From Escherichia coli (GTDB taxonomy: Bacteria; Pseudomonadota; Gammaproteobacteria; Enterobacterales; Enterobacteriaceae), in the NCBI RefSeq assembly GCF_013315695.1, contig NZ_CP054353.1: DNA of 64,000 nt. One strand, written 5' to 3'. The notes under the pieces are model-generated. The model was not told the DNA's origin and did not search any database. It worked only from the letters and a program-made list of their open reading frames with translations. Made by a program: the position numbers and the translations under genes. Shown in pieces: positions 7,041-60,921 of this stretch (position 1 is the stretch's first letter; each line of letters opens with the position of its first letter).

Positions 7041-10000
7041 GTGAAAGATTTATTAAAGTTTCTGAAAGCGCAGACTAAAACCGAAGAGTTTGATGCGATC
7101 AAAATTGCTCTGGCTTCGCCAGACATGATCCGTTCATGGTCTTTCGGTGAAGTTAAAAAGCCGGAAACCATCAACTACCGTACGTTCAAACCAGAACGTG
7201 ACGGCCTTTTCTGCGCCCGTATCTTTGGGCCGGTAAAAGATTACGAGTGCCTGTGCGGTAAGTACAAGCGCCTGAAACACCGTGGCGTCATCTGTGAGAA
7301 GTGCGGCGTTGAAGTGACCCAGACTAAAGTACGCCGTGAGCGTATGGGCCACATCGAACTGGCTTCCCCGACTGCGCACATCTGGTTCCTGAAATCGCTG
7401 CCGTCCCGTATCGGCCTGCTGCTCGATATGCCGCTGCGCGATATCGAACGCGTGCTGTACTTTGAATCCTATGTGGTTATCGAAGGCGGTATGACCAATC
7501 TGGAGCGTCAGCAGATCCTGACTGAAGAACAGTATCTGGACGCGCTGGAAGAGTTCGGTGACGAATTCGACGCGAAGATGGGTGCGGAAGCAATCCAGGC
7601 CCTGCTGAAGAGCATGGATCTGGAGCAAGAGTGTGAACAGCTGCGTGAAGAGCTGAACGAAACCAACTCCGAAACCAAGCGTAAAAAGCTGACCAAGCGT
7701 ATTAAACTGCTGGAAGCGTTCGTTCAGTCTGGTAACAAACCAGAGTGGATGATCCTGACCGTTCTGCCGGTACTGCCGCCAGATCTGCGTCCGCTGGTTC
7801 CGCTGGATGGTGGTCGTTTCGCGACTTCTGACCTGAACGATCTGTATCGTCGCGTCATTAACCGTAACAACCGTCTGAAACGTCTGCTGGATCTGGCTGC
7901 GCCGGACATCATCGTACGTAACGAAAAACGTATGCTGCAGGAAGCGGTAGACGCCCTGCTGGATAACGGTCGTCGCGGTCGTGCGATCACTGGTTCTAAC
8001 AAGCGTCCTCTGAAATCTTTGGCCGACATGATCAAAGGTAAACAGGGTCGTTTCCGTCAGAACCTGCTCGGTAAGCGTGTTGACTACTCCGGTCGTTCTG
8101 TAATCACCGTAGGTCCATACCTGCGTCTGCATCAGTGCGGTCTGCCGAAGAAAATGGCACTGGAGCTGTTCAAACCGTTCATCTACGGCAAGCTGGAACT
8201 GCGTGGTCTTGCTACCACCATTAAAGCTGCGAAGAAAATGGTTGAGCGCGAAGAAGCTGTCGTTTGGGATATCCTGGACGAAGTTATCCGCGAACACCCG
8301 GTACTGCTGAACCGTGCACCGACTCTGCACCGTCTGGGTATCCAGGCATTTGAACCGGTACTGATCGAAGGTAAAGCTATCCAGCTGCACCCGCTGGTTT
8401 GTGCGGCATATAACGCCGACTTCGATGGTGACCAGATGGCTGTTCACGTACCGCTGACGCTGGAAGCCCAGCTGGAAGCGCGTGCGCTGATGATGTCTAC
8501 CAACAACATCCTGTCCCCGGCGAACGGCGAACCAATCATCGTTCCGTCTCAGGACGTTGTACTGGGTCTGTACTACATGACCCGTGACTGTGTTAACGCC
8601 AAAGGCGAAGGCATGGTGCTGACTGGCCCGAAAGAAGCAGAACGTCTGTATCGCTCTGGTCTGGCTTCTCTGCATGCGCGCGTTAAAGTGCGTATCACTG
8701 AGTATGAAAAAGATGCTAACGGTGAATTAGTCGAGAAAACCAGCCTGAAAGATACGACCGTTGGCCGTGCCATTCTGTGGATGATTGTACCGAAAGGTCT
8801 GCCTTACTCCATCGTCAACCAGGCGCTGGGTAAGAAAGCAATCTCCAAAATGCTGAACACCTGCTACCGCATTCTCGGTCTGAAACCGACCGTTATTTTT
8901 GCGGACCAGATCATGTACACCGGCTTTGCCTATGCAGCGCGTTCTGGTGCATCTGTTGGTATCGATGACATGGTCATCCCGGAGAAGAAACACGAAATCA
9001 TCTCCGAGGCAGAAGCTGAAGTTGCTGAGATTCAGGAGCAGTTCCAGTCTGGTCTGGTAACTGCGGGCGAACGCTACAACAAAGTTATCGATATCTGGGC
9101 TGCGGCGAACGATCGTGTATCCAAAGCGATGATGGATAACCTGCAAACTGAAACCGTTATTAACCGTGACGGTCAGGAAGAGAAGCAGGTTTCCTTCAAC
9201 AGCATCTACATGATGGCCGACTCCGGTGCGCGTGGTTCTGCGGCACAGATTCGTCAGCTTGCTGGTATGCGTGGTCTGATGGCGAAGCCGGATGGCTCCA
9301 TCATCGAAACGCCAATCACCGCGAACTTCCGTGAAGGTCTGAACGTACTCCAGTACTTCATCTCCACCCACGGTGCTCGTAAAGGTCTGGCGGATACCGC
9401 ACTGAAAACTGCGAACTCCGGTTACCTGACTCGTCGTCTGGTTGACGTGGCGCAGGACCTGGTGGTTACCGAAGACGATTGTGGTACCCATGAAGGTATC
9501 ATGATGACTCCGGTTATCGAAGGTGGTGACGTTAAAGAGCCGCTGCGCGATCGCGTATTGGGTCGTGTAACTGCTGAAGACGTTCTGAAGCCGGGTACTG
9601 CTGATATCCTTGTTCCGCGCAACACGCTGCTGCACGAACAGTGGTGTGACCTGCTGGAAGAGAACTCTGTCGACGCGGTTAAAGTACGTTCTGTTGTATC
9701 TTGTGACACCGACTTTGGTGTATGTGCGCACTGCTACGGTCGTGACCTGGCGCGTGGCCACCTCATCAACAAAGGTGAAGCAATCGGTGTTATCGCGGCA
9801 CAGTCCATCGGTGAACCGGGTACACAGCTGACCATGCGTACGTTCCACATCGGTGGTGCGGCATCTCGTGCGGCTGCTGAATCCAGCATCCAGGTGAAAA
9901 ACAAAGGTAGCATCAAGCTCAGCAACGTGAAGTCGGTTGTGAACTCCAGTGGTAAACTGGTTATCACTTCCCGTAACACCGAACTGAAACTGATCGACGA

Positions 10001-24073: not shown

Positions 24074-25395
24074 CGCACGATAATATCGATATTCTGGTGG
24101 TGGATGATGACATTAGCCACTGCACTATTTTGCAGGCTTTGCTGCGCGGCTGGGGCTATAACGTCGCGCTGGCGAACAGCGGGCGACAGGCGCTGGAGCA
24201 GGTGCGGGAACAGGTTTTTGATCTTGTGCTTTGCGATGTGCGAATGGCAGAGATGGATGGTATCGCCACGCTAAAAGAGATCAAAGCGTTAAATCCGGCG
24301 ATTCCGGTACTGATTATGACCGCATACTCCAGCGTCGAGACGGCGGTAGAGGCGTTGAAAACCGGGGCGCTGGATTATCTCATCAAGCCGCTGGATTTCG
24401 ATAACCTGCAGGCGACGCTGGAAAAGGCGCTCGCACATACGCACAGTGTTGACGCTGAAACGCCTGCGGTGTCTGCCAGCCAGTTCAGTATGGTCGGTAA
24501 AAGCCCGGCGATGCAACACCTGCTCAGTGAAATCGCCCTCGTCGCGCCATCGGAAGCCACGGTGCTGATCCACGGCGATTCCGGCACCGGTAAAGAGCTG
24601 GTCGCCAGGGCGATTCACGCCAGTAGCGCACGGAGTGAAAAACCACTGGTAACGCTCAACTGTGCGGCACTCAACGAATCCTTGCTGGAATCTGAATTGT
24701 TCGGTCACGAAAAAGGGGCGTTTACCGGAGCCGACAAACGGCGGGAAGGGCGCTTTGTTGAGGCGGACGGCGGCACGCTGTTTCTCGATGAAATTGGCGA
24801 TATCTCACCGATGATGCAGGTTCGTCTGCTGCGTGCGATTCAGGAGCGCGAAGTTCAGCGTGTCGGCAGCAACCAGACCATCTCGGTTGATGTCCGGCTG
24901 ATTGCGGCGACTCATCGCGATCTTGCCGCAGAGGTGAATGCCGGGCGTTTTCGCCAGGATCTCTACTATCGCCTGAACGTGGTGGCGATTGAAGTACCGC
25001 CGCTGCGTCAGCGGCGGGAAGATATTCCTCTGCTGGCTGACCATTTTCTTCAGCGCTTTGCCGAGCGTAATCGCAAGGCGGTAAAAGGTTTTACGCCCCA
25101 GGCGATGGATCTGCTGATTCACTACGACTGGCCGGGAAATATTCGTGAACTGGAAAACGCGGTGGAACGGGCGGTGGTGCTGCTGACCGGGGAATATATT
25201 TCCGAACGCGAGCTGCCGCTGGCGATTGCGAGTACGCCGATCCCGCTGGTACAAAGTCAGGATATTCAGCCGCTGGTGGAAGTCGAAAAAGAGGTGATTC
25301 TTGCGGCACTGGAGAAAACGGGCGGCAACAAAACCGAAGCCGCCCGTCAGTTAGGGATCACGCGCAAAACGCTCTTGGCAAAACTGTCGCGTTAG
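24070..25395 (+). CDS. zraR: sigma54-dependent response regulator ZraR
   Basis: 441 aa; receiver domain, AAA+ sigma54-activator motifs GDSGTGKE and GAFTGA, C-terminal HTH; 4 nt overlap with zraS. Confidence 0.95.
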
Positions 25396-26681
25396 TTCTG
25401 CTCGCGTTCGATAGCGCGCCAGCCGATATCTTTCCGGCAGAAGCAGTCGTCCCAGTGGATATCGGTCATTAAGGCGTAGGCGCGTTTCTGCGCTTCTGCT
25501 ACGGTATGACCCAGCGCGGTGACGCACAGTACGCGCCCGCCGCTGGTCACTACCTGCTCGTTACCCGCCAGTTTCGTGCCCGCGTGGAACACTTTGCCGT
25601 CAGACACTTCTTCCAGCGGCAGGCCGTGGATCACATCGCCGGTGCGGTAATCGCCCGGATATCCACCCGCAGCCATCACCACGCCGAGAGAAGCGCGTTC
25701 ATCCCACTCGGACGTTTTCTCGTCCAGCTTGCCTTCACAGGCCGCCAGGCAAAGCTCAACCAGATCGGACTTCATGCGCAGCATAATCGGCTGGGTTTCT
25801 GGATCGCCAAAGCGGCAGTTAAATTCAATAACCTTCGGATTGCCCTGTTTGTCGATCATCAGGCCCGCGTAGAGAAAACCAGTGTAGGTGTTGCCTTCTG
25901 CCGCCATGCCTTTCACGGTTGGCCAGATGATTCGTTCCATCGTGCGCTGATGAACCTCATCGGTCACTACTGGCGCAGGGGAGTAAGCGCCCATCCCGCC
26001 GGTGTTCGGCCCGGTATCTTTATCGCCTACGCGTTTGTGATCCTGGCTGGTGGCCATCGGCAGCACATGCTCACCGTCCACCATCACGATAAAGCTCGCT
26101 TCTTCGCCGTCGAGGAACTCTTCGATAACGATGCGATGCCCCGCGTCGCCAAAAGCGTTGCCCGCCAGCATATCGTGAACAGCCGCTTCCGCTTCTTCCT
26201 GCGTCATCGCCACGATAACGCCTTTCCCGGCAGCCAGACCGTCAGCTTTAATGACGATTGGCGCGCCTTTCTCACGCAGATACGCCAGCGCAGGTTCTAC
26301 CTCGGTGAAGTTCTGGTATTCCGCCGTAGGGATCTGATGGCGGGCCAGGAAATCCTTGGTAAACGCTTTCGAGCCTTCCAGCTGCGCGGCACCTGCGGTT
26401 GGGCCGAAGATTTTCATCCCGGCGGCGCGGAAGGTATCGACCACGCCTTTCACCAGCGGCGCTTCCGGGCCGACGATGGTTAGATCGATCTTTTCGTTTT
26501 GCGCGAAATCCAGCAGCGCCGGGATATCGGTTACGCCGATAGCGACGTTTTGCAGTGCAGGCTCCAGCGCAGTGCCTGCGTTACCCGGAGCAACAAAAAC
26601 AGTTTCAACCAGCGGCGACTGGGCCGCTTTCCAGGCCAGCGCGTGCTCGCGCCCGCCGTTACCAATCACTAATACTTTCAT
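25392..26681 (-). CDS. purD: Phosphoribosylamine-glycine ligase
   Basis: 429 aa MKVLVIGNGGREHALAWKAAQSPLVETVFVAPGNAGTA; stop overlaps the zraR stop convergently. Confidence 0.96.
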   Translation of the reverse strand: MKVLVIGNGGREHALAWKAAQSPLVETVFVAPGNAGTALEPALQNVAIGVTDIPALLDFAQNEKIDLTIVGPEAPLVKGVVDTFRAAGMKIFGPTAGAAQLEGSKAFTKDFLARHQIPTAEYQNFTEVEPALAYLREKGAPIVIKADGLAAGKGVIVAMTQEEAEAAVHDMLAGNAFGDAGHRIVIEEFLDGEEASFIVMVDGEHVLPMATSQDHKRVGDKDTGPNTGGMGAYSPAPVVTDEVHQRTMERIIWPTVKGMAAEGNTYTGFLYAGLMIDKQGNPKVIEFNCRFGDPETQPIMLRMKSDLVELCLAACEGKLDEKTSEWDERASLGVVMAAGGYPGDYRTGDVIHGLPLEEVSDGKVFHAGTKLAGNEQVVTSGGRVLCVTALGHTVAEAQKRAYALMTDIHWDDCFCRKDIGWRAIEREQN

Positions 26682-26692
26682 CTATTGCTCCA

Positions 26693-28282
26693 TTAATGGC
26701 GGAAGTGGCGCATGTCGGTGAAGAGCATTGCAATACCGTGCTCGTCGGCGGCGGCAATCACTTCGTCATCACGGATAGAACCGCCAGGCTGGATTACGCA
26801 GGTCACGCCCGCAGCGGCGGCGGCATCAATACCGTCGCGGAACGGGAAGAACGCGTCAGAAGCCATCGAGGAACCTTTCACTTCCAGACCTTCATCGGCA
26901 GCTTTAATACCGGCGATTTTCGCGGAGTACACGCGGCTCATCTGGCCTGCGCCAATACCGATGGTCATATTGTTTTTGGCGTAGACAATGGCGTTAGATT
27001 TCACGAACTTCGCCACCTTCCAGCAGAACAGCGCATCACGCAGCTCCTGTTCAGTCGGCTGACGTTTGGTGACGACGCGCAGTTCTTCCGCGCCGACCAT
27101 GCCCAGATCGCGATCCTGAACCAGCAGACCGCCGTTCACGCGTTTGAAATCAAGACCCGGAACACGCTCGCCCCACTGACCGCAGGTCAGAACGCGTACG
27201 TTCTGCTTGGCGGCGGTGATTTTCAGTGCTTCTTCGCTGGCGGACGGCGCAATAATCACTTCGACGAACTGACGAGAAATGATGGCCTGCGCGGTTTCCG
27301 CATCCAGCTCGCGGTTAAAGGCGATAATGCCGCCGAATGCGGAGGTCGGGTCGGTTTTGTACGCGCGATCGTAAGCATCAAGAATGGAATTGCCGATAGC
27401 CACGCCGCAAGGGTTGGCGTGCTTCACAATCACACATGCCGGCTCGGCGAACTCTTTCACGCACTCCAGCGCCGCATCGGTATCGGCGATGTTGTTATAA
27501 GAGAGGGCTTTACCCTGAACCTGGGTTGCGGTAGCAACGGAGGCTTCTTTCACATTCTCTTCTATATAGAAGGCAGCCTGCTGGTGGCTGTTCTCGCCGT
27601 AACGCATATCCTGCTTCTTAATGAAGTTCAGGTTCAGCGTGCGTGGGAAGCGACCGGCGGCTTCTTTGCTTTCACCGTGGTAAGCCGGAACCATGCTGCC
27701 GAAGTAGTTGGCAATCATGCTGTCGTAGGCGGCGGTGTGTTCGAAGGCTTTGATGGCAAGGTCAAAGCGAGTTTCCAGAGTCAGGGAGCCTTCATTGGCA
27801 TCTATCTCTTTAATAATGGCGTCGTAGTCGCTGCTCTTCACCACGATTGCGACATCTTTATGGTTCTTGGCGGCAGAGCGCACCATCGTTGGGCCGCCGA
27901 TATCGATGTTCTCAACCGCATCTTCCAGCGAGCAACCTTCACGGGCAACGGTCTGGGCGAACGGATACAGGTTAACAACCACCATATCGATAGGCTGGAT
28001 CTGATGTTCTTCCATAATGGCATCGTCCTGGCCGCGACGGCCCAGAATGCCACCATGTACTTTCGGATGCAGGGTCTTCACGCGTCCATCCATCATCTCC
28101 GGGAAACCGGTGTAATCGGAAACTTCGGTTACCGGCAGACCTTTTTCTGCTAACAGACGGGCTGTGCCCCCTGTAGACAGCAGCTCCACACCGCGTGCGG
28201 AAAGTGCCTGGGCGAATTCGACGATACCGGCTTTGTCAGAAACACTGAGCAGAGCGCGGCGGACTGGACGACGTTGTTGCAT
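26693..28282 (-). CDS. purH: Bifunctional AICAR transformylase / IMP cyclohydrolase
   Basis: 529 aa [44 protein letters not shown]. Confidence 0.96.
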
Positions 28283-28389
28283 GGTAAATCCCCTGGATTT
28301 GACTATTACAGAGAGCGTTAGCTGAATTTTTCGCGAAAAACTCAGCTAACGCCCCTAACGGGGCATCCTTATTTTTCGCCCGCATTGTA

Positions 28390-28405
28390 ACGAAAACGTT
28401 TGCGC
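28390..28405 (-). promoter_or_regulatory. PurR operator (PUR box) of purHD
   Basis: ACGAAAACGTTTGCGC; reverse complement matches the palindromic PurR consensus ACGCAAACGTTTTCGT, about 100 nt upstream of purH. Confidence 0.7.
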
Positions 28406-28576
28406 AACGCTCGCGAATTTTTCTCTTTCAATGGTGATCACAATTTTGACAGTGGTTACCGTGGGAAAAATACAGAAATTACATTGATGATTGTGGATAA
28501 CTCTGTGCGTAAAAAGGTATAAAGCGGGGTTTTGCTGGGGAATGCAGCAGTCAGTCATTTTTCTGCAATTTTTCTA

Positions 28577-28604
28577 TTGCGGCCTGCGGAGAACTCCCTA
28601 TAAT
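28577..28604 (+). promoter_or_regulatory. rRNA operon promoter P1
   Basis: TTGCGG -35, 16 bp spacer, TATAAT -10, then GC-rich discriminator GCGCC; A/T-rich UP region upstream. Confidence 0.75.
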
Positions 28605-28686
28605 GCGCCTCCATCGACACGGCGGATGTGAATCACTTCACACAAACAGCCGGTTCGGTTGAAGAGAAAAATCCTGAAATTCAGGG

Positions 28687-28714
28687 TTGACTCTGAAAGA
28701 GGAAAGCGTAATAT
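28687..28714 (+). promoter_or_regulatory. rRNA operon promoter P2
   Basis: TTGACT -35, 16 bp spacer, TAATAT -10, about 110 bp downstream of P1. Confidence 0.7.
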
Positions 28715-28898
28715 ACGCCACCTCGCGACAGTGAGCTGAAAGCCGCGTCGCAACTGCTCTTTAACAATTTATCAGACAATCTGTGTGGGCACTCGAAGAT
28801 ACGGATTCTTAACGTCGCAAGACGAAAAATGAATACCAAGTCTCAAGAGTGAACACGTAATTCATTACGAAGTTTAATTCTTTGAGCATCAAACTTTT

Positions 28899-30440
<1,542 letters not shown>

Positions 30441-30525
30441 CCTTAAAGAAGCGTACTTTGAAGTGCTCACACAGATTGTCTGATAGAAAGTGAAAAGCAA
30501 GGCGTCTTGCGAAGCAGACTGATAC

Positions 30526-30601
30526 GTCCCCTTCGTCTAGAGGCCCAGGACACCGCCCTTTCACGGCGGTAACAGGGGTTCGAATCCCCTAGGGGACGCC
30601 A
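30526..30601 (+). tRNA. gltV: tRNA-Glu (UUC) in 16S-23S spacer
   Basis: GTCCCCTTCGTCTAGAGGCCCAGGACACCGCCCTTTCACGGCGGTAACAGGGGTTCGAATCCCCTAGGGGACGCCA, 76 nt, anticodon loop CTTTCAC. Confidence 0.96.
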
Positions 30602-30795
30602 CTTGCTGGTTTGTGAGTGAAAGTCACCGACCTTAATATCGTTAAAGATGACTTACGAGTCATGTTTAAGATATTTGCTCTTTAAAAATCTGGATCAAGC
30701 TGAAAATTGAAACACTGAACAACGAAAGTTGTTCGTGAGTCTCTCAAATTTTCGCAACACGATGATGAGTCGAAAGAAACATCTTCGGGTTGTGA

Positions 30796-33699
<2,904 letters not shown>

Positions 33700-33793
33700 A
33701 CAACGCCGAAGATGTTTTGGCGGAAGAGACATCGATAAGTAAGCTTGATAACAGATTAAATCAGAACGCAGAAGTGGTCTGATAAACAGAATT

Positions 33794-33913
33794 TGCCTGG
33801 CGGCCTTAGCGCGGTGGTCCCACCTGACCCCATGCCGAACTCAGAAGTGAAACGCCGTAGCGCCGATGGTAGTGTGGGGTCTCCCCATGCGAGAGTAGGG
33901 AACTGCCAGGCAT
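33794..33913 (+). rRNA. rrfE: 5S ribosomal RNA
   Basis: TGCCTGGCGGCCTTAGCGCGGTGGTCCCACCTGACCCCATGCCGAACTCAGAAGTGAAACGCCGTAGCGCCGATGG...CTGCCAGGCAT, 120 nt. Confidence 0.97.
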
Positions 33914-33927
33914 CAAATTAAGCGAAA

Positions 33928-33952
33928 GGCCATCCTGACGGATGGCCTTTTT
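33928..33952 (+). terminator. rRNA operon terminator
   Basis: GGCCATCC-tgac-GGATGGCC followed by TTTTT, 15 nt after 5S. Confidence 0.85.
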
Positions 33953-34002
33953 GCGCTGGTGCAGAAAAAGGTCGGATGCGACGCTGGCGCGTCTTACCCG
34001 AC

Positions 34003-34479
34003 CTACGAAGAGTTGCGGCGAGTGCAGATATCCGCATTATCCCCCACATATGCCAGATTCAGCAATGGATACGGTTTCCCCAAATCGTCCACCTCAGAGC
34101 GTCCCGTAACCTTAAAACCCACCTTCTTATAGAACCCAACCGCCTGCTCATTTTGCTCATTAACATTGGTTGTCAGTTCCGGGGCCATTGAGAGCGCATG
34201 CTTCACCAGCATCCGACCCACGCCGCAGCCGCGCACATCAGGATCGATAAACAGCGCATCCATATGCTGCCCACTTAACAACATAAACCCAACCGGCCGA
34301 TCCCGCTCATTAACCGCGACCCACAACGGCGCTTCCGGCAAGAAGGAACGAACTAGCTCCTCCAGCTCGGCCCGATACTCTGCTGATAAAAAATCGTGAG
34401 TGGCATCGACAGAACGACACCAAATCGCAACGAGTTCCTCCCCTTCCTCATGCCGTGAGCGGCGAATACTAATAACCAT
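34003..34479 (-). CDS. yjaB: GNAT family N-acetyltransferase YjaB
   Basis: 158 aa track ORF MVISIRRSRHEEGEELVAIWCRSVDATHDFLSAEYRAELEEL...; acetyl-CoA binding motif RGCGVGRMLVKHAL, GFYKKVGF. Confidence 0.85.
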   Translation of the reverse strand: MVISIRRSRHEEGEELVAIWCRSVDATHDFLSAEYRAELEELVRSFLPEAPLWVAVNERDRPVGFMLLSGQHMDALFIDPDVRGCGVGRMLVKHALSMAPELTTNVNEQNEQAVGFYKKVGFKVTGRSEVDDLGKPYPLLNLAYVGDNADICTRRNSS

Positions 34480-34592
34480 TTTCTCTCCTTTTCGTCATTC
34501 TTATATTCTAACGTAGCCTTTTCCTTGAAACTTTCTCACCTTCAACATGCAGACTCGACATTGGCAAATTTTCTGGTTATCTTCAGCTATCT

Positions 34593-34616
34593 GGATGTCT
34601 AAACGTATAAGCGTAT
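34593..34616 (+). promoter_or_regulatory. MetJ operator (tandem met boxes) of metA
   Basis: GGATGTCT AAACGTAT AAGCGTAT: three tandem 8 bp repeats related to the met box AGACGTCT, 20-45 nt upstream of metA. Confidence 0.65.
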
Positions 34617-34635
34617 GTAGTGAGGTAATCAGGTT

Positions 34636-35565
34636 ATGCCGATTCGTGTGCCGGACGAGCTACCCGCCGTCAATTTCTTGCGTGAAGAAAACGTCTTTGT
34701 GATGACAACTTCTCGTGCGTCTGGTCAGGAAATTCGTCCGCTAAAGGTACTTATCCTTAACCTGATGCCGAAGAAGATCGAAACTGAAAATCAGTTTCTG
34801 CGCCTGCTTTCAAACTCACCTTTGCAGGTCGATATTCAGCTGTTGCGCATTGATTCCCGTGAATCGCGCAACACGCCCGCAGAGCATCTGAATAACTTCT
34901 ACTGTAACTTTGAAGATATTCAGGAACAAAACTTTGACGGTCTGATAGTTACCGGCGCGCCGCTGGGCCTGGTGGAGTTTAATGATGTCGCTTACTGGCC
35001 GCAGATCAAACAGGTGCTGGAGTGGTCGAAAGATCACGTCACCTCGACGCTGTTTGTCTGCTGGGCGGTACAGGCCGCGCTAAATATCCTCTACGGCATT
35101 CCTAAGCAAACTCGCACCGACAAACTCTCTGGCGTTTACGAGCATCATATTCTCCATCCTCATGCGCTTCTGACGCGTGGCTTTGATGATTCATTCCTGG
35201 CACCGCATTCGCGCTATGCTGACTTTCCGGCAGCGTTGATTCGTGATTACACCGATCTGGAAATTCTGGCAGAGACGGAAGAAGGGGATGCATATCTGTT
35301 TGCCAGCAAAGATAAGCGCATTGCCTTTGTGACGGGCCATCCCGAATATGATGCGCAAACGCTGGCGCAGGAATATTTCCGCGATGTGGAAGCCGGACTA
35401 GACCCGGAAGTACCGTATAACTATTTCCCGCACAATGATCCGCAAAACAAACCGCGAGCGAGCTGGCGTAGTCACGGTAATTTGCTGTTTACCAACTGGC
35501 TCAACTATTACGTCTACCAGATCACGCCATACGATCTACGGCACATGAATCCAACGCTGGATTAA
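34636..35565 (+). CDS. metA: Homoserine O-succinyltransferase
   Basis: 309 aa [51 protein letters not shown]. Confidence 0.96.
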
Positions 35566-35609
35566 TCTTCTGTGATAGTCGATCGTTAAGCGATTCAGCA
35601 CCTTACCTC

Positions 35610-35632
35610 AGGCACCTTCGGGTGCCTTTTTT
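35610..35632 (+). terminator. metA terminator
   Basis: AGGCACC-ttcg-GGTGCCT followed by TTTTTT. Confidence 0.8.
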
Positions 35633-35709
35633 ATTTCCGAAACGCACCTCAGTAGGTGAATAAAATTTATTCATATTGTTATCAATAAGTTATCAAGTAT
35701 TTTTAATTA

Positions 35710-35740
35710 AAATGGAAATTGTTTTTGATTTTGCATTTTA
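35710..35740 (+). promoter_or_regulatory. aceBAK promoter region with IclR box
   Basis: AAATGGAAATTGTTTTTGATTTTGCATTTT, A/T-rich imperfect palindrome resembling the IclR operator (TGGAAAT...ATTTCCA type), about 100 nt upstream of aceB. Confidence 0.45.
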
Positions 35741-35833
35741 AATGAGTAGTCTTAGTTGTGCTGAACGAAAAGCGCACAACGATCCTTCGTTCACAGTGGG
35801 GAAGTTTTCGGATCCATGACGAGGAGCTGCACG

Positions 35834-37435
35834 ATGACTGAACAGGCAACAACAACCGATGAACTGGCTTTCATAAGGCCGTATGGCGAGCAGGAGAAGC
35901 AAATTCTTACTGCCGAAGCGGTAGAATTTCTGACTGAGCTGGTGACGCATTTTACGCCACAACGCAATAAACTTCTGGCAGCGCGCATTCAGCAGCAGCA
36001 GGATATCGATAACGGAACGTTGCCTGATTTTATTTCGGAAACAGCTTCCATTCGTGATGCTGACTGGAAAATTCGTGGTATTCCCGCGGACTTACAAGAT
36101 CGTCGAGTCGAGATAACTGGCCCGGTTGAGCGCAAGATGGTGATCAACGCGCTCAACGCCAATGTGAAAGTCTTTATGGCCGATTTCGAAGATTCACTGG
36201 CCCCGGACTGGAACAAAGTGATCGACGGGCAAATTAACCTGCGCGATGCGGTTAACGGCACCATCAGCTATACCAATGAAGCAGGCAAAATTTATCAGCT
36301 CAAGCCCAATCCAGCGGTGTTGATTTGTCGGGTTCGCGGTCTGCACTTGCCGGAAAAACATGTCACCTGGCGCGGCGAAGCAATTCCTGGCAGCCTGTTT
36401 GATTTTGCGCTCTATTTCTTCCACAACTACCAGGCTCTGTTAGCAAAAGGCAGCGGTCCCTATTTCTATCTGCCGAAAACCCAGTCCTGGCAGGAAGCGG
36501 CCTGGTGGAGCGAAGTCTTCAGCTATGCAGAAGATCGCTTTAATCTGCCGCGCGGCACCATCAAGGCGACGTTGCTGATTGAAACGCTGCCCGCCGTGTT
36601 CCAGATGGACGAAATCCTTCACGCGCTGCGTGACCATATTGTTGGTCTGAACTGCGGTCGTTGGGATTACATCTTCAGTTATATCAAAACGTTGAAAAAC
36701 TATCCCGATCGCGTCCTGCCAGATAGACAGGCAGTGACGATGGATAAACCCTTCCTGAATGCTTACTCACGCCTGTTGATTAAAACCTGCCATAAACGCG
36801 GCGCATTTGCGATGGGCGGCATGGCGGCGTTTATTCCGAGCAAAGATGAAGAGCGCAATAACCAGGTGCTCAACAAAGTAAAAGCGGATAAATCGCTGGA
36901 AGCCAATAACGGTCACGATGGCACATGGATCGCTCACCCAGGTCTTGCGGATACGGCAATGGCGGTATTCAACGACATTCTCGGCTCCCGTAAAAATCAG
37001 CTTGAAGTGATGCGCGAACAAGACGCGCCGATTACTGCCGATCAGCTGCTGGCACCTTGTGATGGTGAACGCACCGAAGAAGGTATGCGCGCCAACATTC
37101 GCGTGGCTGTGCAGTACATCGAAGCATGGATCTCCGGCAACGGCTGCGTGCCGATTTATGGCCTGATGGAAGATGCGGCGACGGCTGAAATTTCCCGTAC
37201 CTCAATCTGGCAGTGGATCCATCATCAAAAAACGTTGAGCAATGGCAAACCGGTGACCAAAGCCTTGTTCCGCCAGATGCTGGGCGAAGAGATGAAAGTC
37301 ATTGCCAGCGAACTGGGCGAAGAACGTTTCTCCCAGGGGCGTTTTGACGATGCCGCACGTTTGATGGAACAGATCACCACTTCCGATGAGTTAATTGATT
37401 TCCTGACCCTGCCAGGCTACCGCCTGTTAGCGTAA
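35834..37435 (+). CDS. aceB: Malate synthase A
   Basis: 533 aa from ATG 35834 ([33 protein letters not shown]); track ORF starts 6 codons upstream. Confidence 0.96.
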
Positions 37436-37464
37436 ACCACCACATAACTATGGAGCATCTGCAC

Positions 37465-38769
37465 ATGAAAACCCGTACACAACAAATTGAAGAATTACAG
37501 AAAGAGTGGACTCAACCGCGTTGGGAAGGCATTACTCGGCCATACAGCGCGGAAGATGTGGTGAAATTACGCGGTTCAGTCAATCCTGAATGCACGCTGG
37601 CGCAACTGGGCGCGGCGAAAATGTGGCGTCTGCTGCACGGCGAGTCGAAAAAAGGCTACATCAACAGCCTCGGTGCACTGACTGGCGGTCAGGCGCTGCA
37701 ACAGGCGAAAGCGGGTATTGAAGCGGTCTATCTGTCGGGATGGCAGGTAGCGGCGGACGCTAACCTGGCGGCCAGCATGTATCCGGATCAGTCGCTCTAT
37801 CCGGCAAACTCGGTGCCAGCTGTGGTGGAGCGGATCAACAACACCTTCCGCCGTGCGGATCAGATCCAATGGTCCGCGGGCATTGAGCCGGGCGATCCGC
37901 GCTATGTCGATTACTTCCTGCCGATCGTTGCTGATGCGGAAGCCGGTTTTGGCGGTGTCCTGAATGCCTTTGAACTGATGAAAGCGATGATTGAAGCCGG
38001 TGCAGCGGCAGTTCACTTCGAAGATCAGCTGGCATCAGTGAAGAAATGCGGTCACATGGGCGGCAAAGTTTTAGTGCCAACTCAGGAAGCTATTCAGAAA
38101 CTGGTCGCGGCGCGTCTGGCAGCTGACGTGACGGGCGTTCCAACCCTTCTGGTTGCCCGTACCGATGCTGATGCGGCGGATCTGATTACCTCCGATTGCG
38201 ACCCGTATGACAGCGAATTTATTACCGGCGAGCGTACCAGTGAAGGCTTCTTCCGTACTCATGCAGGTATTGAACAAGCGATCAGCCGTGGCCTGGCGTA
38301 TGCGCCATATGCTGACCTGGTATGGTGTGAAACCTCCACGCCGGATCTGGAACTGGCGCGTCGCTTTGCACAAGCCATCCACGCGAAATATCCGGGCAAA
38401 CTGCTGGCTTATAACTGCTCGCCTTCGTTCAACTGGCAGAAAAACCTCGACGACAAAACTATTGCCAGCTTCCAGCAGCAGCTGTCGGATATGGGCTACA
38501 AGTTCCAGTTCATCACCCTGGCAGGTATCCACAGCATGTGGTTCAACATGTTTGACCTGGCAAACGCCTATGCCCAGGGCGAGGGTATGAAGCACTATGT
38601 TGAGAAAGTGCAGCAGCCGGAATTTGCCGCCGCGAAAGATGGCTATACCTTCGTATCTCACCAGCAGGAAGTGGGTACAGGTTACTTCGATAAAGTGACG
38701 ACCATTATTCAGGGCGGCACGTCGTCGGTTACCGCACTGACTGGCTCCACTGAAGAATCGCAGTTCTAA
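37465..38769 (+). CDS. aceA: Isocitrate lyase
   Basis: 434 aa from ATG 37465 ([38 protein letters not shown]); KKCGHMGGK active-site motif. Confidence 0.96.
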
Positions 38770-38789
38770 GCAACCTACAAACGTTGCTG

Positions 38790-38928
38790 ACTGTAGGCCG
38801 GATAAGGCATTTACGCCGCATCCGGCAATCGGTGCACGATGCCTGATGCGACGCTTGCGCGTCTTATCATGCCTACAACCGTTGCCGAACGTAGGCTGGA
38901 TAAGGCGTTTACGCCGCATCCGGCAATT
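38790..38928. repeat. REP/BIME cluster (three REP units, alternating orientation)
   Basis: CTGTAGGCCGGATAAGGCATTTACGCCGCATCCGGCAA, GCCTGATGCGACGCTTGCGCGTCTTATCATGCCTAC, GTAGGCTGGATAAGGCGTTTACGCCGCATCCGGCAA match the E. coli REP consensus. Confidence 0.85.
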
Positions 38929-38952
38929 CTCTGCTCCTGATGAGGGCGCTAA

Positions 38953-40677
<1,725 letters not shown>

Positions 40678-40693
40678 ATCAGAGGCGAAAAAG

Positions 40694-41518
40694 TCAGCGC
40701 ATTCCACCGTACGCCAGCGTCACTTCCTTCGCCGCTTTAATCACCATCGCGCCAAACTCGGTCACGCGGTCATCGGTAATACGTGAAATCGGTCCGGAAA
40801 TAGAAATTGCGGCAAACGGTTCACGGTGCTCATCGAAAATACACGCTGCAAGGCAACGTAGCCCCAGCGCATGTTCCTCATCGTCAAATGAATAACCCCG
40901 TTTGCGCGTTTGGGCGAGATCTTCTTTTAAATGCACAGGAGACACTAGCGTTGCGTGGGTATAGGCATGTAACCCTTTGCGGTGCAGCAGCTTCGTCACC
41001 TGTTCTTCGCTCAGTTGGGCTAAAAAGGCTTTACCCGCACCGGAAGCGTGCATAGGTAATTTACCGCCGATAGGCGCGGACATTCGCATCAGGTGGGTAC
41101 ACTGTACTTGGTCGATAATAATCGCTTCATGATCGCTTTGATCAAGCACCGCCATATTGACCGTTTCGCCAGACTCTTCCATTAGATTGCGCAGGATAGG
41201 GTGAACAATTGCTAACAAATTACGGCTCTGGAGAAAGCTGCTGCCGACCATAAAGGCATGTGCGCCGATTGCCCAGTGTCCCAGTTCGCCAACCTGACGC
41301 ACGAAACCCTGCTGTTGCATCGTGGTTAGCAGGCGGTGGGTCGTGGAATTGGGTAACCCGGCTTGTTGCGCCAGCTCCGTGAGTGCCACACTGCCATTGG
41401 ATTCGGCAATCCACTCCAGTAATTTCAGGCCACGCGTTAAAGACTGAACCTGTCCAGTCGCTGGTGCGGTGGCAACGGCGGGTTTTCTGCCGCGTTTCGC
41501 GGGAATGGGTGCGACCAT
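40694..41518 (-). CDS. iclR: Glyoxylate bypass repressor IclR
   Basis: 274 aa MVAPIPAKRGRKPAVATAPATGQVQSLTRGLKLLEWIAESNGSVALTELAQQAGLPNSTTHRLL; stop is 16 nt from aceK stop. Confidence 0.95.
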   Translation of the reverse strand: MVAPIPAKRGRKPAVATAPATGQVQSLTRGLKLLEWIAESNGSVALTELAQQAGLPNSTTHRLLTTMQQQGFVRQVGELGHWAIGAHAFMVGSSFLQSRNLLAIVHPILRNLMEESGETVNMAVLDQSDHEAIIIDQVQCTHLMRMSAPIGGKLPMHASGAGKAFLAQLSEEQVTKLLHRKGLHAYTHATLVSPVHLKEDLAQTRKRGYSFDDEEHALGLRCLAACIFDEHREPFAAISISGPISRITDDRVTEFGAMVIKAAKEVTLAYGGMR

Positions 41519-41717
41519 GACAGTCTCCTTTTTCTGTATCGTGGAAATCATTTTCATTTTTATTGTTAGCTAATGCAATAGTTGCTGAACTGATCCGATG
41601 AGTTAATGTTGAACAAATCTCATGTTGCGTGGTGGTCGCTTTTACCACAGATGCGTTTATGCCAGTATGGTTTGTTGAATTTTTATTAAATCTGGGTTGA
41701 GCGTGTCGGGAGCAAGT

Positions 41718-45401
<3,684 letters not shown>

Positions 45402-55892: not shown

Positions 55893-56165
55893 TCAGCGCC
55901 TGCCGCGCGTCGACGTATTTGCTGACCAGCTAAATGACGCCTCAGGATCCGGTTTATAAGCCTGCTTTTTCTTCAATTGGCGGGCTTTTTTCGCTTCAGC
56001 CTCACGCTCGACCATTAATTTATCGATGTACTCTTTCTTAATGCTGTTGGTTTCGGAGTTGGTCAGTACGCGACCATGCGCAATCCGCGCCCGATCCAGC
56101 AATGTTTTAAGTTCACGCTGCTCGCGTTCAGTCATCTCTTTTTGGGTAATACGGGGGAGTGCCAT
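55893..56165 (-). CDS. yjbD: DUF3811 family protein YjbD
   Basis: 90 aa MALPRITQKEMTEREQRELKTLLDRARIAHGRVLTNSETNSIKKEYIDKLMVEREAEAKKARQLKKK. Confidence 0.85.
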   Translation of the reverse strand: MALPRITQKEMTEREQRELKTLLDRARIAHGRVLTNSETNSIKKEYIDKLMVEREAEAKKARQLKKKQAYKPDPEASFSWSANTSTRGRR

Positions 56166-56378
56166 GATGGTGCCCTCAGTGAGCCAGAGAGTTCAGTGTA
56201 CGGGAATTCGTTTGCGAGCAGAACTGATAATATTCCTTTGTTCCCTTCTTAAATATCTATCTTTCTTGATAATTGACGATAAATACAGATAAAAATTTAG
56301 CAAAAAGTTTTCCCCCTACAAACAACAGTAATTCATTAACTCTTTATTTTTCATTTGGTTAATGGTTTTTCTCAATTC

Positions 56379-56394
56379 TGGCACGCTTCTCGCA
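56379..56394 (+). promoter_or_regulatory. Putative sigma54 (-24/-12) promoter upstream of the SPFH gene
   Basis: TGGCACGCTTCTCGCA: matches TGGCACG-N4-TTGCW with one mismatch (C for T at -14); GG and GC separated by 10 nt; about 300 nt upstream of the SPFH start. Confidence 0.45.
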
Positions 56395-56693
56395 ATAACA
56401 CTTTTGCGTTGATACTGAATTTCAAAGGGGATTAAACCCCGTCGGCACACCAGGAACGGCCAGGCTGTTTTCCGGGCGTGTTCCGTCAGCCTTTGACGCT
56501 AATTACGGGTTCGATTCCCGAATTCATTCCTGAAATGAATACTGGTTGTAACTTATTAAATAAAAAATGGGGGATTGCGCAGTCAGCGATCCCCGATAAC
56601 GTCGCCGATAAAGACGCCGGGATACAGGCAAAAGGGAATTCCCCTGTCTCTTCGTGTCTGCTTCCGCGACGGCTGTTAAGCAAGGAATAGATA

Positions 56694-57821
56694 ATGATTA
56701 AGAAAATAAGCGTAAGAAAAGATCAGCTGGCATTACTCTCCAGAAATGGCGATTACTACAAAGTGCTGCATGCAGGCGAGCATCTTTTACCCTGGTTAAA
56801 TACGCCAGAAGTCTTGCTGATTACGCTCGATGGCAGCGAAGTTCCCGACGTGCTGGCGGATTATTTGCGCCGCTTTCAGCCTGATTGGGTGGAAAGATAT
56901 TGCGTGGTGGCCGACTTGTCGGAGACTGAAGCCGGGGCGTTGTATATGGACGGTATTTTGCTGGAGATCCTGCCGCCATCAACGCGTCGTTTGTACTGGC
57001 GTGTAGAGGATGATTTGACGCTGGTGCGGATGAATACGCAGCAAGTCCAGGTTCAAACGGAGGTGATGAATGCGGTATTGCAGCCACGGCGCAAAGGGAC
57101 TGTTAAAGGCCGCGATGCGATACTGACGGTGCAGGTTCCGGCCTGGCACGTAGGTGTACTGAAAATCGATGGTGAAACGCAGGCGCTGTTACCGCCGGGG
57201 CTGACTGCGTACTGGAAAATTAACCATCTGGTTGAAGCTGAAGTGGTTGACACCCGCTTGCAGGTACTGGAAGTCAGTGGGCAAGAAATCTTAACGAAAG
57301 ATAAGGTCAATCTGCGGATTAATCTCGCCGCTAACTAGCGCTACAGCGACGTGTTATTGGCATTTAGTCAGTTAACGAAGCCGATTGATCATTTGTATCG
57401 GGAATTGCAATTTGCACTGCGTGAAGCGGTAGGTACGCGTACGCTGGATGAGTTGCTGGAAGATAAACAAGTCATTGATGACGTTGTCAGCGAACAGGTG
57501 AAATCGCGTATGTTGCCATTTGGTATGGAGATTGCTTCATTAGGGGTGAAAGATATCGTCCTGCCTGGCGATATGAAAAATATCCTTGCGCAGCTGGTTG
57601 AGGCGGAGAAATCCGCGCAGGCCAATGTGATTCGTCGACGTGAAGAAACGGCAGCGACGCGTTCGTTACTCAATACCGCTAAAGTCATGGAAAACAACCC
57701 GGTGGCGTTACGCTTAAAAGAACTGGAAACGCTGGAGAGAGTGGCTGAGCGGATCGATAACATCTCTGTATTTGGTGGTCTGGATCAGGTTCTGCACGGG
57801 TTAGTGAATATCAAAGGATGA
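56694..57821 (+). pseudogene. SPFH/band-7 domain protein, interrupted by in-frame TAG at 57339-57341
   Basis: Track ORFs 56694..57338 and 57351..57821 are in the same frame, separated only by the TAG; the joined product (...TKDKVNLRINLAAN*RYSDVLLAFSQ...LLEDKQVIDDVVSEQVKSRMLPFGMEIASLGVKDIVLPGDMKNILAQLVEAEKSAQANVIRRREE) has a stomatin/prohibitin-type SPFH domain spanning the stop. Confidence 0.7.
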
Positions 57822-57933
57822 GTCAAATGCCATTAAATGGAGTCAGTGCTGCGATGCGCGAACGGGTATCGCAGCAGTTAAAAGAAATAGAACGTCGCTA
57901 TGGCGTGAAAGTGCTGTACGCCTGCGAATCAGG

Positions 57934-57945
57934 CAGCCGCGGCTG
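57934..57945. repeat. IS4 target-site duplication, left copy
   Basis: CAGCCGCGGCTG immediately 5' of the IS4 terminus TAATGCC. Confidence 0.85.
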
Positions 57946-59371
57946 TAATGCCAGTCAGTTAAGCAACTGACTGGCTCTTTTTCGGGGCTGTGGGGTATTT
58001 CCAGGGCCTCTCCTTTACCACTCTCGGGAAGGCCCTTTCCCTTCTTGTCGGTAATTTCACAAGTTGTCCCATACTTGCAAGATCGCGCATCAGCTCCGGT
58101 ATACGTCCCGGTGAAGCGCCCTGCAATGTCATCAGCATTCTCATCACCATTCCGCATGATTCTGAGAAACTCAGTTGATTCGGCCAGTAACCTTTCAGAT
58201 GTTCCGCCATTTTAATCATCTGATATCTCACCAGATTATAAGCCAGTAAGACACCCCACAGCTCTTGCTCCACAAGCTCCGGTTTTTTACTTCTCAGCGT
58301 CAGCCTGCTCAGTTGCATCGTCTGTTTTATCTCCCTGTATCCCAGTTCGATTTCCCAGCGATGACTGTACAGATCCGCCATTTCTCCTCCGGGGAAGCGC
58401 ATGGCGTCCGTCATCGACGTCAGCAGATGGCAGACTTTTCCTTTGCGCGTCACGGTCAGCAGGCGGGCTGTCACTTCATTTCCCAGTCCCGGCCACTTTT
58501 TTCGTGCCTGCGGGCTGGTTTTCAGCTTCACCAGATGATCGCCTTTACCCAGTTTTCTGATCTCTTCATATTGCGCTCCCTTTCTGAGAGGTATCATCCA
58601 GTGGCGGTGTTCTCCCGCCAGGCTCCAGGCATTTAACAGTCCCAGTGAGTAATAACCTTTATCCATTAACGTCAGAGTGTTATCGCCGGTTTGTTCTATA
58701 AGTTGCTCAGCAAGCTCATTTTCGCTGTTCTTCATCGTGCCGAAGGCTGCAGCCGTCAGCAGATGGCTGGTCAGTTCCATCTGGCAGACCATTTTGACCT
58801 GCGGGTAGAGCGCCGGGTTCCCGGCATGTGTCTGGCGGGGGAAGGCTGCATCGTTCTCTGGTGTATCCGGTGTGCGCCAGAACACACCATCGATGGCCAG
58901 CAGGGTCAGGCCGCACCAGTGCGGATGCGGCGTGGCGTTATGCCAGAGCTGCGCTGTTTTCGTGAACACGCGGCGGACAGCCTCACTTCCCAGGCGCTGG
59001 CGGGCCTGAATAACGGCACTGGGGGCAACGAAGGGGCGATTGCCCGGCAGCATGATGTCCAGGCGATTCACAATCTGGTGAAGAGGTTCTTTACGCTCAA
59101 GCGCCATGCCAACAATACACCAGACCATCATTTCGAGGGGAAGACGGCGCTTGCGTAGCGTTACAGTACCTGATTCGGCAAGGCAACGAGAGATGAGTTC
59201 GGGGTCGAGGTAATCCCCCAGAGAAGTCAGTGGGTTACGCAGAGAATCGTAACGGGATACCAGATCAAGAGCCTGTCCAATGTGCATAAAAAAATCCGGA
59301 AACAAGTGAGCGTTTCCGGATTCTTACACAGCCACTGGATCGGTCAACTGATCCTTAACTGATCGGCATTA
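57946..59371 (-). mobile_element. IS4 insertion sequence (complete, 1426 bp)
   Basis: Terminal inverted repeats TAATGCCAGTCAGTTAAG... and ...CTTAACTGATCGGCATTA; single 442 aa DDE transposase; flanked by a 12 bp direct repeat. Confidence 0.92.
57959..59287 (-). CDS. insG: IS4 transposase
   Basis: 442 aa [63 protein letters not shown]... (IS4 family DDE transposase). Confidence 0.92.
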
Positions 59372-59383
59372 CAGCCGCGGCTG
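59372..59383. repeat. IS4 target-site duplication, right copy
   Basis: CAGCCGCGGCTG immediately 3' of the IS4 terminus. Confidence 0.85.
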
Positions 59384-60170
59384 GGGATTTGCCTCGCCCG
59401 ATAGCGACTACGATGTACGGTTTTTGTATGTCCATCCGCTGGAATGGTATCTGCGTGTAGAGTCACCGCGCGATGTTATCGAGCTGCCCATCGACGACGA
59501 ATTAGATGTTTCCGGTTGGGAGTGGCGTAAGGCGCTGGGATTATTGAAAGGCGCGAATCCGACGCTGATAGAATGGCTGGATTCTCCGGTGGTCTATCAA
59601 CAAGATGAAGAAACGATAACGGCGCTTAAGGCAATGGTCCCAATGTGGTTTTCTTCGTTGCGTGCACGCTGGCATTACTATTCGATGGCGCAGAAAAACT
59701 TCCGCGGCTATTTGCAGGGCGATGAAGTTCGACTGAAAAAATACTTTTACGTGCTGCGCCCGCTGCTGGCCGTGCGCTGGGTCGAAGCGGGTAAAGGCGT
59801 GCCGCCAATGCGCTTTGCTGAGTTACTGGCAGGAAGCGAGCTTGATGCGCCGTTACGCGAAGAGATTGACGAACTGCTGGAGCGTAAACAGCGAGCGGGG
59901 GAGGCGGAATATGGTCCGCGCCGTCCTTTGTTACATGCGTTTATTCGCGCGGAGCTGGCGCGTGGGGAAATTCCACCGATTTTACCGGACAGTCGAGATG
60001 GAGATGTTCGGGAGCTAGATAATTTGCTGTATCAAACGGTAATGCGCCGGGCATAAAGCCCGGCGTGATTTATTGCTGGTATTGCCAACTGCTGACTAAA
60101 GCGTACAAGTGATTTGGTGATGCTGCCAACTTACTGATTTAGTGTATGATGGTGTTTTTGAGGTGCTCCA

Positions 60171-60446
60171 GTGGCTTCTGTTTCTATCAGCTGTCCCTCC
60201 TGTTCAGCTACTGACGGGGTGGTGCGTAACGGCAAAAGCACCGCCGGACATCAGCGCTATCTCTGCTCTCACTGCCGTAAAACATGGCAACTGCAGTTCA
60301 CTTACACCGCTTCTCAACCCGGTACGCACCAGAAAATCATTGATATGGCCATGAATGGCGTTGGATGCCGGGCAACAGCCCGCATTATGGGCGTTGGCCT
60401 CAACACGATTTTACGTCACTTAAAAAACTCAGGCCGCAGTCGGTAA
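60171..60446 (+). CDS. insA: IS1 InsA
   Basis: 91 aa [43 protein letters not shown]... zinc-finger/HTH protein of IS1. Confidence 0.93.
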
Positions 60447-60868
60447 CCTCGCGCATACAGCCGGGCAGTGACGTCATCGTCTGCGCGGAAATGGACGAAC
60501 AGTGGGGCTATGTCGGGGCTAAATCGCGCCAGCGCTGGCTGTTTTACGCGTATGACAGGCTCCGGAAGACGGTTGTTGCGCACGTATTCGGTGAACGCAC
60601 TATGGCGACGCTGGGGCGTCTTATGAGCCTGCTGTCACCCTTTGACGTGGTGATATGGATGACGGATGGCTGGCCGCTGTATGAATCCCGCCTGAAGGGA
60701 AAGCTGCACGTAATCAGCAAGCGATATACGCAGCGAATTGAGCGGCATAACCTGAATCTGAGGCAGCACCTGGCACGGCTGGGACGGAAGTCGCTGTCGT
60801 TCTCAAAATCGGTGGAGCTGCATGACAAAGTCATCGGGCATTATCTGAACATAAAACACTATCAATAA
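60365..60868 (+). CDS. insB: IS1 InsB reading frame (expressed as InsAB' by -1 frameshift)
   Basis: -1 frame relative to insA; ...[78 protein letters not shown] slippery run in the insA/insB overlap. Confidence 0.9.
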
Positions 60869-60921
60869 GTTGGAGTCATTACCAATAGCGTCGTGGGTCG
60901 CTATTCACCTCTACTGATCGT

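Follow-up and report, generated by a model that had tools for sequence, protein, structure and literature searches.

RNA 3'-end modification by RlaP has been described for two Pseudomonas enzymes (PfRlaP and PaRlaP), which extend RNA 3'-OH ends by one or two NMPs and require three strictly conserved aspartates for catalysis (PMC12776372). In Pseudomonas the gene is located beside rtcB in an rtcR-controlled operon, as are its orthologues in Kosakonia and Franconibacter (PMC12776372; PMC13086221), and in P. aeruginosa a gene for an SPFH protein (PaFlo8) is embedded in the rtc locus rtcR-rtcB-rtcA (PMC13086221). Insertion sequences of the IS4 family duplicate about one helical turn of their target (11-13 bp for IS4), and the elements of the IS4 subgroup are credited with a "spectacular" specificity in the target arms (PMC2266710).

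The window (the whole 64-kb stretch of Escherichia coli DNA that was analysed) brings these systems together, with an IS4 element lying inside an rlaP gene. In our reading, to which we assign a probability of about 0.96, a complete IS4 moved by ordinary DDE transposition into an intact rlaP and split its predicted active site; the event would have been recent and would have struck a vestigial Rtc-type operon.

The inserted element was delimited as follows.

57946-59371, transposase on the minus strand: complete copy of IS4, 1426 bp, assigned by its ends, its length and its near-identity to other copies
57959-59305, minus strand: IS4 transposase coding sequence, 448 aa from TTG at 59305 or 442 aa from ATG at 59287
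57946-57963, plus strand: terminal inverted repeat at the end distal to the transposase start, read directly and found by end-motif search
59354-59371, minus strand: terminal inverted repeat at the end proximal to the transposase start, read directly and found by end-motif search

IS4 of E. coli (IS4 family, IS4 subgroup; insG of K-12) is 1426 bp long, with 18-bp imperfect inverted repeats and a single DDE transposase ORF, and the element in the window has all of these traits. Its inverted repeats, TAATGCCAGTCAGTTAAG and TAATGCCGATCAGTTAAG, are identical at 16 of their 18 positions, and the end motif was found at just two sites in the 64-kb window, namely the two ends of this element (0.01 expected by chance). 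The transposase was matched by the IS4 family model NF033592 of NCBIfam (E = 9e-91; 304 bits, cut-off 115), the Pfam domains Nterm_IS4 (PF13006) and DDE_Tnp_1 (PF01609) were found on proteins identical to it, and RefSeq labels it "IS4-like element IS4 family transposase". Between this copy and 20 IS4 copies from other genomes there are 0-3 differences per 1426 nt (at least 99.8% identity). The element is a complete, canonical IS4, as follows from its length, its inverted repeats, its lone long minus-strand ORF with an IS4 profile match and its near-identity to the 20 copies. It has no difference of its own from IS4 of E. coli; only its intragenic location is unusual.

Both ends of the element abut a direct repeat, and the gene continues on either side.

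57934-57945: left copy of the target-site duplication CAGCCGCGGCTG, perfectly palindromic and coding for S37-R38-G39 plus part of W40
59372-59383: right copy of the target-site duplication CAGCCGCGGCTG, read directly
57827-57945, plus strand: rlaP 5' fragment, codons 1-39 plus 2 nt, carrying G36-S37; RefSeq pseudogene "DNA polymerase beta superfamily protein, missing C-terminus"
59384-60056, plus strand: rlaP 3' fragment, from the rest of codon 40 to the stop, carrying D48, D50, D81 and the helical domain; RefSeq pseudogene "missing N-terminus"

Every coordinate given for the element and for its 12-bp repeats in the original prediction, including the length of exactly 1426 bp, was reproduced by script. 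CAGCCGCGGCTG occurs exactly twice in the window, once at each IS4 end. The repeat is exactly 12 bp long and is not extendable, the outer bases being different (left G versus A, right T versus G); duplications at 13 other IS4 sites measure 11-14 bp. When IS4 and one repeat copy are removed, ...YACESGSRG is joined in frame to WGFASPDSDYDVRF..., as had been predicted, and the restored gene is identical to intact genes elsewhere. Its length of 804 bp had to be corrected: the restored ORF, from ATG at 57827 to the stop at 60056, comprises 792 bp (263 codons plus stop), and 804 bp is the length with both repeat copies kept, which would add four residues. The element is located after nucleotide 119 of rlaP, within codon 40 (W40).

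In a search of 5,426 complete E. coli genomes with the reconstructed ORF, homologues, which the original prediction had named as a check, proved numerous: an uninterrupted rlaP is present in 1,627 of these genomes, and in three of the 1,627 (MS 21-1, OZ546925 and OZ546911) it is 100% identical to the restored ORF over all 792 nt. The empty site in MS 21-1 holds the 12-mer in single copy, and its flanks are collinear with the window (99.97% identity upstream, 99.3% downstream). The proposed simple transposition into an intact gene is thus matched by an empty site with one 12-mer, an identical ORF and collinear flanks.

These observations also bear on whether IS4 might instead mark a rearrangement junction, that is, the end-point of an inversion or deletion formed by homologous recombination between two IS4 copies. 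The host carries some 18 IS4 copies, and a neighbouring IS1 is tied to a 17.6-kb deletion without target duplication, so that such events are conceivable here. Recombination between IS4 copies would, however, give unrelated flanks and no matching duplication, whereas the same 12-mer is found on both flanks, and these are contiguous halves of one gene, collinear with MS 21-1. With a matching duplication and an empty site of 100% identity, a rearrangement is effectively refuted.

The junction was surveyed with a 140-nt probe across its left side, and the exact junction was found in only two of the 5,426 genomes. These are E. coli MSB1_4I (NZ_LR898874.1) and OZ547117, to both of which the window is 100% identical over 12 kb; in the RefSeq record NZ_LR898874.1 both gene pieces are already annotated as pseudogene fragments flanking an IS4 transposase. 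Each of the two genomes has 18 IS4 ends, compared with a median of 1 among IS4-carrying genomes and a maximum of 33. A misassembly, in which an IS4 copy was misplaced into the gene, would be in keeping with the fact that IS elements are a classic source of such errors, and LR898874 and OZ547117 may represent one clone, so that the second record adds little independent support for the assembly. Even so, two separate complete-genome records share the identical junction, and a misplaced repeat would not produce a precise, IS4-typical 12-bp duplication at the exact IS ends; we consider an artefact extremely improbable.

The insertion is best read as a recent, simple transposition in an IS4-rich lineage (about 18 IS4 copies). 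Its recent date is suggested by the perfect repeat, by the absence of substitutions relative to the intact allele and by the confinement of the junction to 2 of 5,426 genomes. In the proposed course of events, IS4 would have transposed by its cut-and-paste DDE mechanism into the rlaP coding sequence; target cleavage staggered by 12 bp, followed by gap repair, would have duplicated CAGCCGCGGCTG. The NTP-binding loop G36-S37 would be left on a 39-residue N-terminal stub that runs into a stop codon in IS4, and a promoterless 3' fragment would retain D48-x-D50, which binds metal, together with D81 as the likely third carboxylate and the entire helical domain. The product predicted by reading the 5' fragment on into IS4 has 47 aa, and the C-terminal fragment would have 210 aa.

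The identity of the interrupted gene was established from the restored protein (E. coli RlaP, WP_001130544.1). It is matched by the Pfam RlaP model (PF10127, "RNA repair pathway DNA polymerase beta family") with E = 3.2e-96, residues 10-256 covering model positions 1-248 of 249; the generic Polbeta model gave E = 0.47 only. Its homologues number thousands. When the protein was aligned with 54 representatives (55 sequences in all; 37-57% identity), the residues found to be invariant included E34, G36, S37, R38, W40, S47, D48, D50, R52 and D81. The nucleotidyltransferase signature of the Pol-beta superfamily is present as G36-S37, ten residues and D48-Y-D50; D81, likewise invariant, is the likely third carboxylate. 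The claim that IS4 cuts the catalytic core between the GS and DxD motifs is borne out, both motifs being invariant in the 55 RlaP homologues and W40 lying between them. Neither piece is expected to form an active site, because the GS loop is separated by IS4 from D48, D50, D81 and the helical domain; we infer that enzyme activity is lost and that the gene is null.

PfRlaP, PaRlaP and T4 NrdC.11 (PF10127) have the invariant GS plus DxD core as well as a helical domain at the C terminus in common with the E. coli protein. Biochemistry is known for the Pseudomonas enzymes only, whereas the E. coli protein is assigned to RlaP by sequence and is split in this window. The designation as a canonical "minimal NTase" in the original prediction could not be kept, as the protein is a two-domain RlaP of 263 aa with a C-terminal helical domain. 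The minimal nucleotidyltransferases (MNT of HEPN-MNT toxin-antitoxin systems) are stand-alone domains of about 100-150 aa, and this class was rejected in view of the length of 263 aa, the helical domain, the lack of a HEPN neighbour and the lack of a PADLOC hit. Neither NCBIfam nor PADLOC assigned a family to RlaP or to the slipin protein encoded upstream, and no PDB chain was matched in a sequence search with RlaP. A known defence system likewise found no support in NCBIfam or PADLOC; there was just a sub-threshold PezT-like match for a zeta-toxin-family neighbour in other strains.

Target choice was analysed with a comparison set of 20 IS4 copies with their flanks, retrieved by two exact-protein look-ups; the copies occupy 13 distinct insertion sites. 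The literature searched gave no match for an IS4 target formula AAAN20TTT; the target consensus was derived empirically from the 13 sites, and a half-site position weight matrix (PWM) without any reward for dyad symmetry was built from them. The duplications at these sites are 11-14 bp long, have 54-75% G+C and are mostly dyad-symmetric; at 4 of the 13 the duplication begins with CAGC and ends with GCTG or similar. Beside the GC-rich dyad, the strongest feature consists of two arms that lie 3-4 bp beyond the duplication. On one side an A-run spans -8 to -4, with A at -6 and -5 in 26 of 26 half-sites, and a T-run mirrors it on the other, in agreement with the arm specificity described for the IS4 subgroup (PMC2266710). 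Most comparison sites resemble intergenic terminator-like hairpins, such as AAAAAAATAC-CGGCATAACGCCG-GTATTTTTA; 10 of the 13 look intergenic, whereas the site studied here is intragenic. One site, between msyB and a glycosyltransferase (mdoH-like) gene, carries IS4 in both orientations in different strains (L005 versus L016).

The rlaP site reads gAATcagg-CAGCCGCGGCTG-gggATTTg, with a perfect 12-bp dyad of 83% G+C. One half-site is close to the consensus and the other is offset by one base, with T where all 26 training half-sites have A, so that the fit to the IS4 target model appears moderate. The original prediction had called the GC-rich, palindromic target consistent with the site preference of IS4. 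The dyad and the G+C content agree with that; the strongest signal, however, resides in the A-run/T-run arms, one of which is offset here.

Pure chance, with a palindromic target unrelated to the specificity of IS4, seems an unlikely account of this choice. It would sit well with the number of perfect 12-nt palindromes in the window, which is at the chance level (15 versus about 15 by our own estimate, window length/4^6), with the 174 window positions that outscore the rlaP site, and with the presence of only one rlaP insertion in 1,629 genomes. Yet the site ranks 175th of 62,520 window positions (top 0.3%) under a PWM that ignores dyad symmetry, its CAGC...GCTG duplication is like those of 4 of the 13 independent sites, and AAT and ATTT arms are present. 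In addition, the targets of unrelated insertions (trg, hofO and others) are similar enough to the rlaP site for megablast alignments to continue 15-19 nt past the IS4 end. The site was probably chosen because the GS-loop codons happen to make up a CAGC...GCTG dyad, rich in G+C and with AAT and ATTT on its flanks, which mimics the terminator-like targets of IS4. A second independent IS4 insertion in rlaP was not found among the 1,629 rlaP-bearing genomes, and rlaP is therefore no IS4 hot spot.

The insertion lies in an operon between yjbD and lysC, whose further features in the window are listed here.

56379-56394, plus strand: sigma-54-type -24/-12 element TGGCACGCTTCTCGCA, conserved in position across four genera
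56395-56693, plus strand: slipin-rlaP operon leader of about 300 nt, conserved and putatively structured; a T-arm-like hairpin occupies 56506-56520
56694-57821, plus strand: slipin (SPFH/Band_7) pseudogene, 5 nt upstream of rlaP, with W215 changed from TGG to TAG at 57336-57338
60116-60883, plus strand: IS1, 768 bp, without target duplication, replacing a 17.6-kb phage-tail-like cluster found in MS 21-1

In other strains a zeta-toxin-family gene occupies the downstream position. The yjbD-lysC locus was compared with those of other Enterobacteriaceae and with a more distant contig.

Kosakonia and Franconibacter: rtcR divergent from Band_7-rtcB-rlaP
Klebsiella pasteurii: rtcR divergent from Band_7-rlaP
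E. coli: Band_7-rlaP only
Intestinirhabdus: rlaP only
More distant contig: Band_7-zf-rtcB-rlaP-HEAT-rtcA

As in the P. aeruginosa rtc locus with PaFlo8, an SPFH/Band_7 gene accompanies the Rtc genes in Enterobacteriaceae, where it leads an operon with RtcB and RlaP and an RtcR-type sigma-54 activator is encoded divergently. Unlike the P. aeruginosa locus, which has rtcA, the Enterobacteriaceae version is without rtcA and sits between yjbD and lysC; the window keeps only the promoter, the leader and the disrupted slipin and rlaP genes. In contrast to the genes of PfRlaP and PaRlaP, E. coli rlaP is without rtcB and rtcR neighbours and without rtcA; rtcR and rtcB were absent from all E. coli loci examined at this position. 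The association with an RNA ligase, from which the RlaP family takes its name, was likewise not found: neither in the window nor at the E. coli loci that were examined does rtcB or any other ligase gene adjoin rlaP. In Franconibacter and Kosakonia the association does occur at the orthologous locus, and it recurs on the more distant contig; it is a contextual trait of RlaP, not a sequence criterion. On the grounds of these arrangements and of the SPFH gene in the P. aeruginosa rtc locus, we interpret the E. coli slipin-rlaP pair as what is left of an RtcR/sigma-54 operon for RNA repair, which other Enterobacteriaceae have as slipin-rtcB-rlaP.

Codon 215 of the slipin gene is TAG in the window and in MS 21-1 and TGG in strain 98206; the nonsense codon would thus predate the insertion, since the IS4-free MS 21-1 carries the same stop. 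Before IS4 arrived, rlaP would have been the last intact coding member of the vestigial operon, and all accessory content between yjbD and lysC appears to have been inactivated or lost in this strain.

A real but selectively neutral insertion, in which IS4 hit an already dead operon and removed no working function, must be given considerable weight, at slightly less than even odds. The older W215 stop in the slipin gene, with probable polarity on rlaP, is what such a course would leave, as are the decay of the adjoining region by the IS1-associated deletion and the loss from the E. coli loci examined of the rtcR and rtcB genes found at the orthologous locus in Kosakonia and Franconibacter. The selection data point the other way. 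Between divergent E. coli alleles, which have no rtcR or rtcB nearby, dN/dS is 0.055 at dS = 0.33 for rlaP (slipin, 0.047), as expected under strong purifying selection, and rlaP is probably functional where it is intact. Moreover, the sigma-54 element and the leader are conserved, and the rlaP allele, being 100% identical to intact genes, was without defect at the time of insertion. E. coli usually carries a canonical RtcR elsewhere on the chromosome, and this protein might act in trans.

Klebsiella, Franconibacter and Kosakonia, all with a divergent rtcR upstream, have the sigma-54-type element in the corresponding position. The pattern alone showed no enrichment within the window, and the element is credible only because of its conserved position across genera. 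The leader folds better than shuffled sequences (z = -3.0), and in an RNAalifold analysis of five sequences compensatory changes were observed in 20 of 68 pairs. Its hairpin CGGG-TTCGATT-CCCG resembles a tRNA T-arm and covaries (TGGG/CCCA in another E. coli allele, CAGG/CCTG in Franconibacter). Searches of the leader against Rfam and with ARAGORN gave no credible match and no tRNA; a SAM-III match (E = 0.33) was rejected as noise. The data, from five sequences only, are suggestive of a conserved, covarying structured RNA.

Taken together, slipin, rlaP, promoter and leader, which E. coli has kept despite the loss of the cognate rtcR and rtcB, could be viewed as an undescribed stand-alone unit for RNA 3'-end repair or sensing. 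The canonical RtcR would perhaps control it in trans, and the leader, by its likeness to tRNA, might serve as a sensor of RNA damage or a decoy. We regard this idea as quite improbable; if it were true, the IS4 insertion, atop the slipin nonsense codon, would be the natural knock-out of the unit. The unannotated leader RNA may merit a study of its own and is the most interesting side observation of this work.

The IS4 knock-out of rlaP is ordinary and already marked in public annotation, where RefSeq flags both fragments. Losing an accessory gene to IS4 is an everyday form of genome decay where, as in this E. coli lineage, IS elements abound; as a discovery it is minor. It does offer a clean, datable case of IS4 target choice in a coding sequence that would mimic a terminator-like dyad. 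MSB1_4I would be a natural rlaP-null strain and MS 21-1 its near-isogenic, rlaP-intact relative, a pair of potential use for studies of the part in RNA repair that has newly been proposed for RlaP. The surroundings of the gene, finally, indicate that a second Rtc-type operon has been reduced step by step across Enterobacteriaceae.

Gene content at the yjbD-lysC locus, which houses the slipin (Band_7)-rlaP pair in E. coli, was compared between window positions 55893-60921 and five sequences carrying rlaP loci (L025, L027, L030, L031 and L032). The comparison shows an Rtc-type operon reduced stepwise across the Enterobacteriaceae.

Gene content at the yjbD-lysC locus
Kosakonia, Franconibacter: rtcR with Band_7-rtcB-rlaP
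Klebsiella pasteurii: rtcR with Band_7-rlaP
E. coli: Band_7-rlaP
Intestinirhabdus: rlaP alone

Features of the window around rlaP
56379-56394: promoter-like sigma-54-type -24/-12 element
56395-56693: conserved leader (~300 nt) between this element and the slipin start codon
56506-56520: covarying tRNA T-arm-like hairpin, CGGG-TTCGATT-CCCG, inside the leader
56694-57821: slipin/Band_7 pseudogene, directly 5' of rlaP
60116-60883: IS1, 768 bp

Slipin was inactivated by a W215 TGG->TAG change (stop codon at 57336-57338). The identical change is carried by E. coli MS 21-1, which does not have this IS4, and decay of the operon is therefore older than the IS4 insertion.

The rlaP-lysC interval of MS 21-1 is occupied by a 17.6-kb phage-tail-like cluster (24200-41805 of its sequence, L024) containing a Mor activator, holin, sheath, tube, tape measure, baseplate and fibres; no capsid genes were seen in it. 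IS1 takes its place in the window and lacks a target-site duplication; of the last cluster gene, just 48 nt are left (60070-60117). Loss of the cluster looks like an IS1-mediated adjacent deletion.

Alleles of rlaP in E. coli are unusually divergent: dS was 0.33 between the window gene (57827-60056, IS4 removed) and the allele at 8829-9620 of a second E. coli sequence (L002), and identity bands of 80-100% were found across 1,627 genomes; despite this divergence, dN/dS was 0.055, indicating strong constraint. Many strains have a zeta-toxin/PezT-like P-loop kinase gene (308 aa) convergent to rlaP (L002 9656-10582); the window lacks it.

Thirteen insertion sites, read from IS4 copies in further genomes of the E. 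coli group (L004-L023), gave the target consensus AAAAA-N3-[11-14 bp GC-rich dyad, often CAGC...GCTG]-N3-TTTTT, the majority of sites being terminator-like intergenic hairpins. The msyB-side site received independent insertions in both orientations (L005 versus L016), and the adhE-tdk duplication measured 11 bp or 12 bp depending on the strain.

The leader is structured (MFE z = -3.0), with 20 of 68 pairs compensatory (RNAalifold; five sequences, four genera), and Rfam and tRNA searches with it returned no match. RtcR-type operons may thus far have an undescribed leader here, of tRNA-like or Y-RNA-like character.
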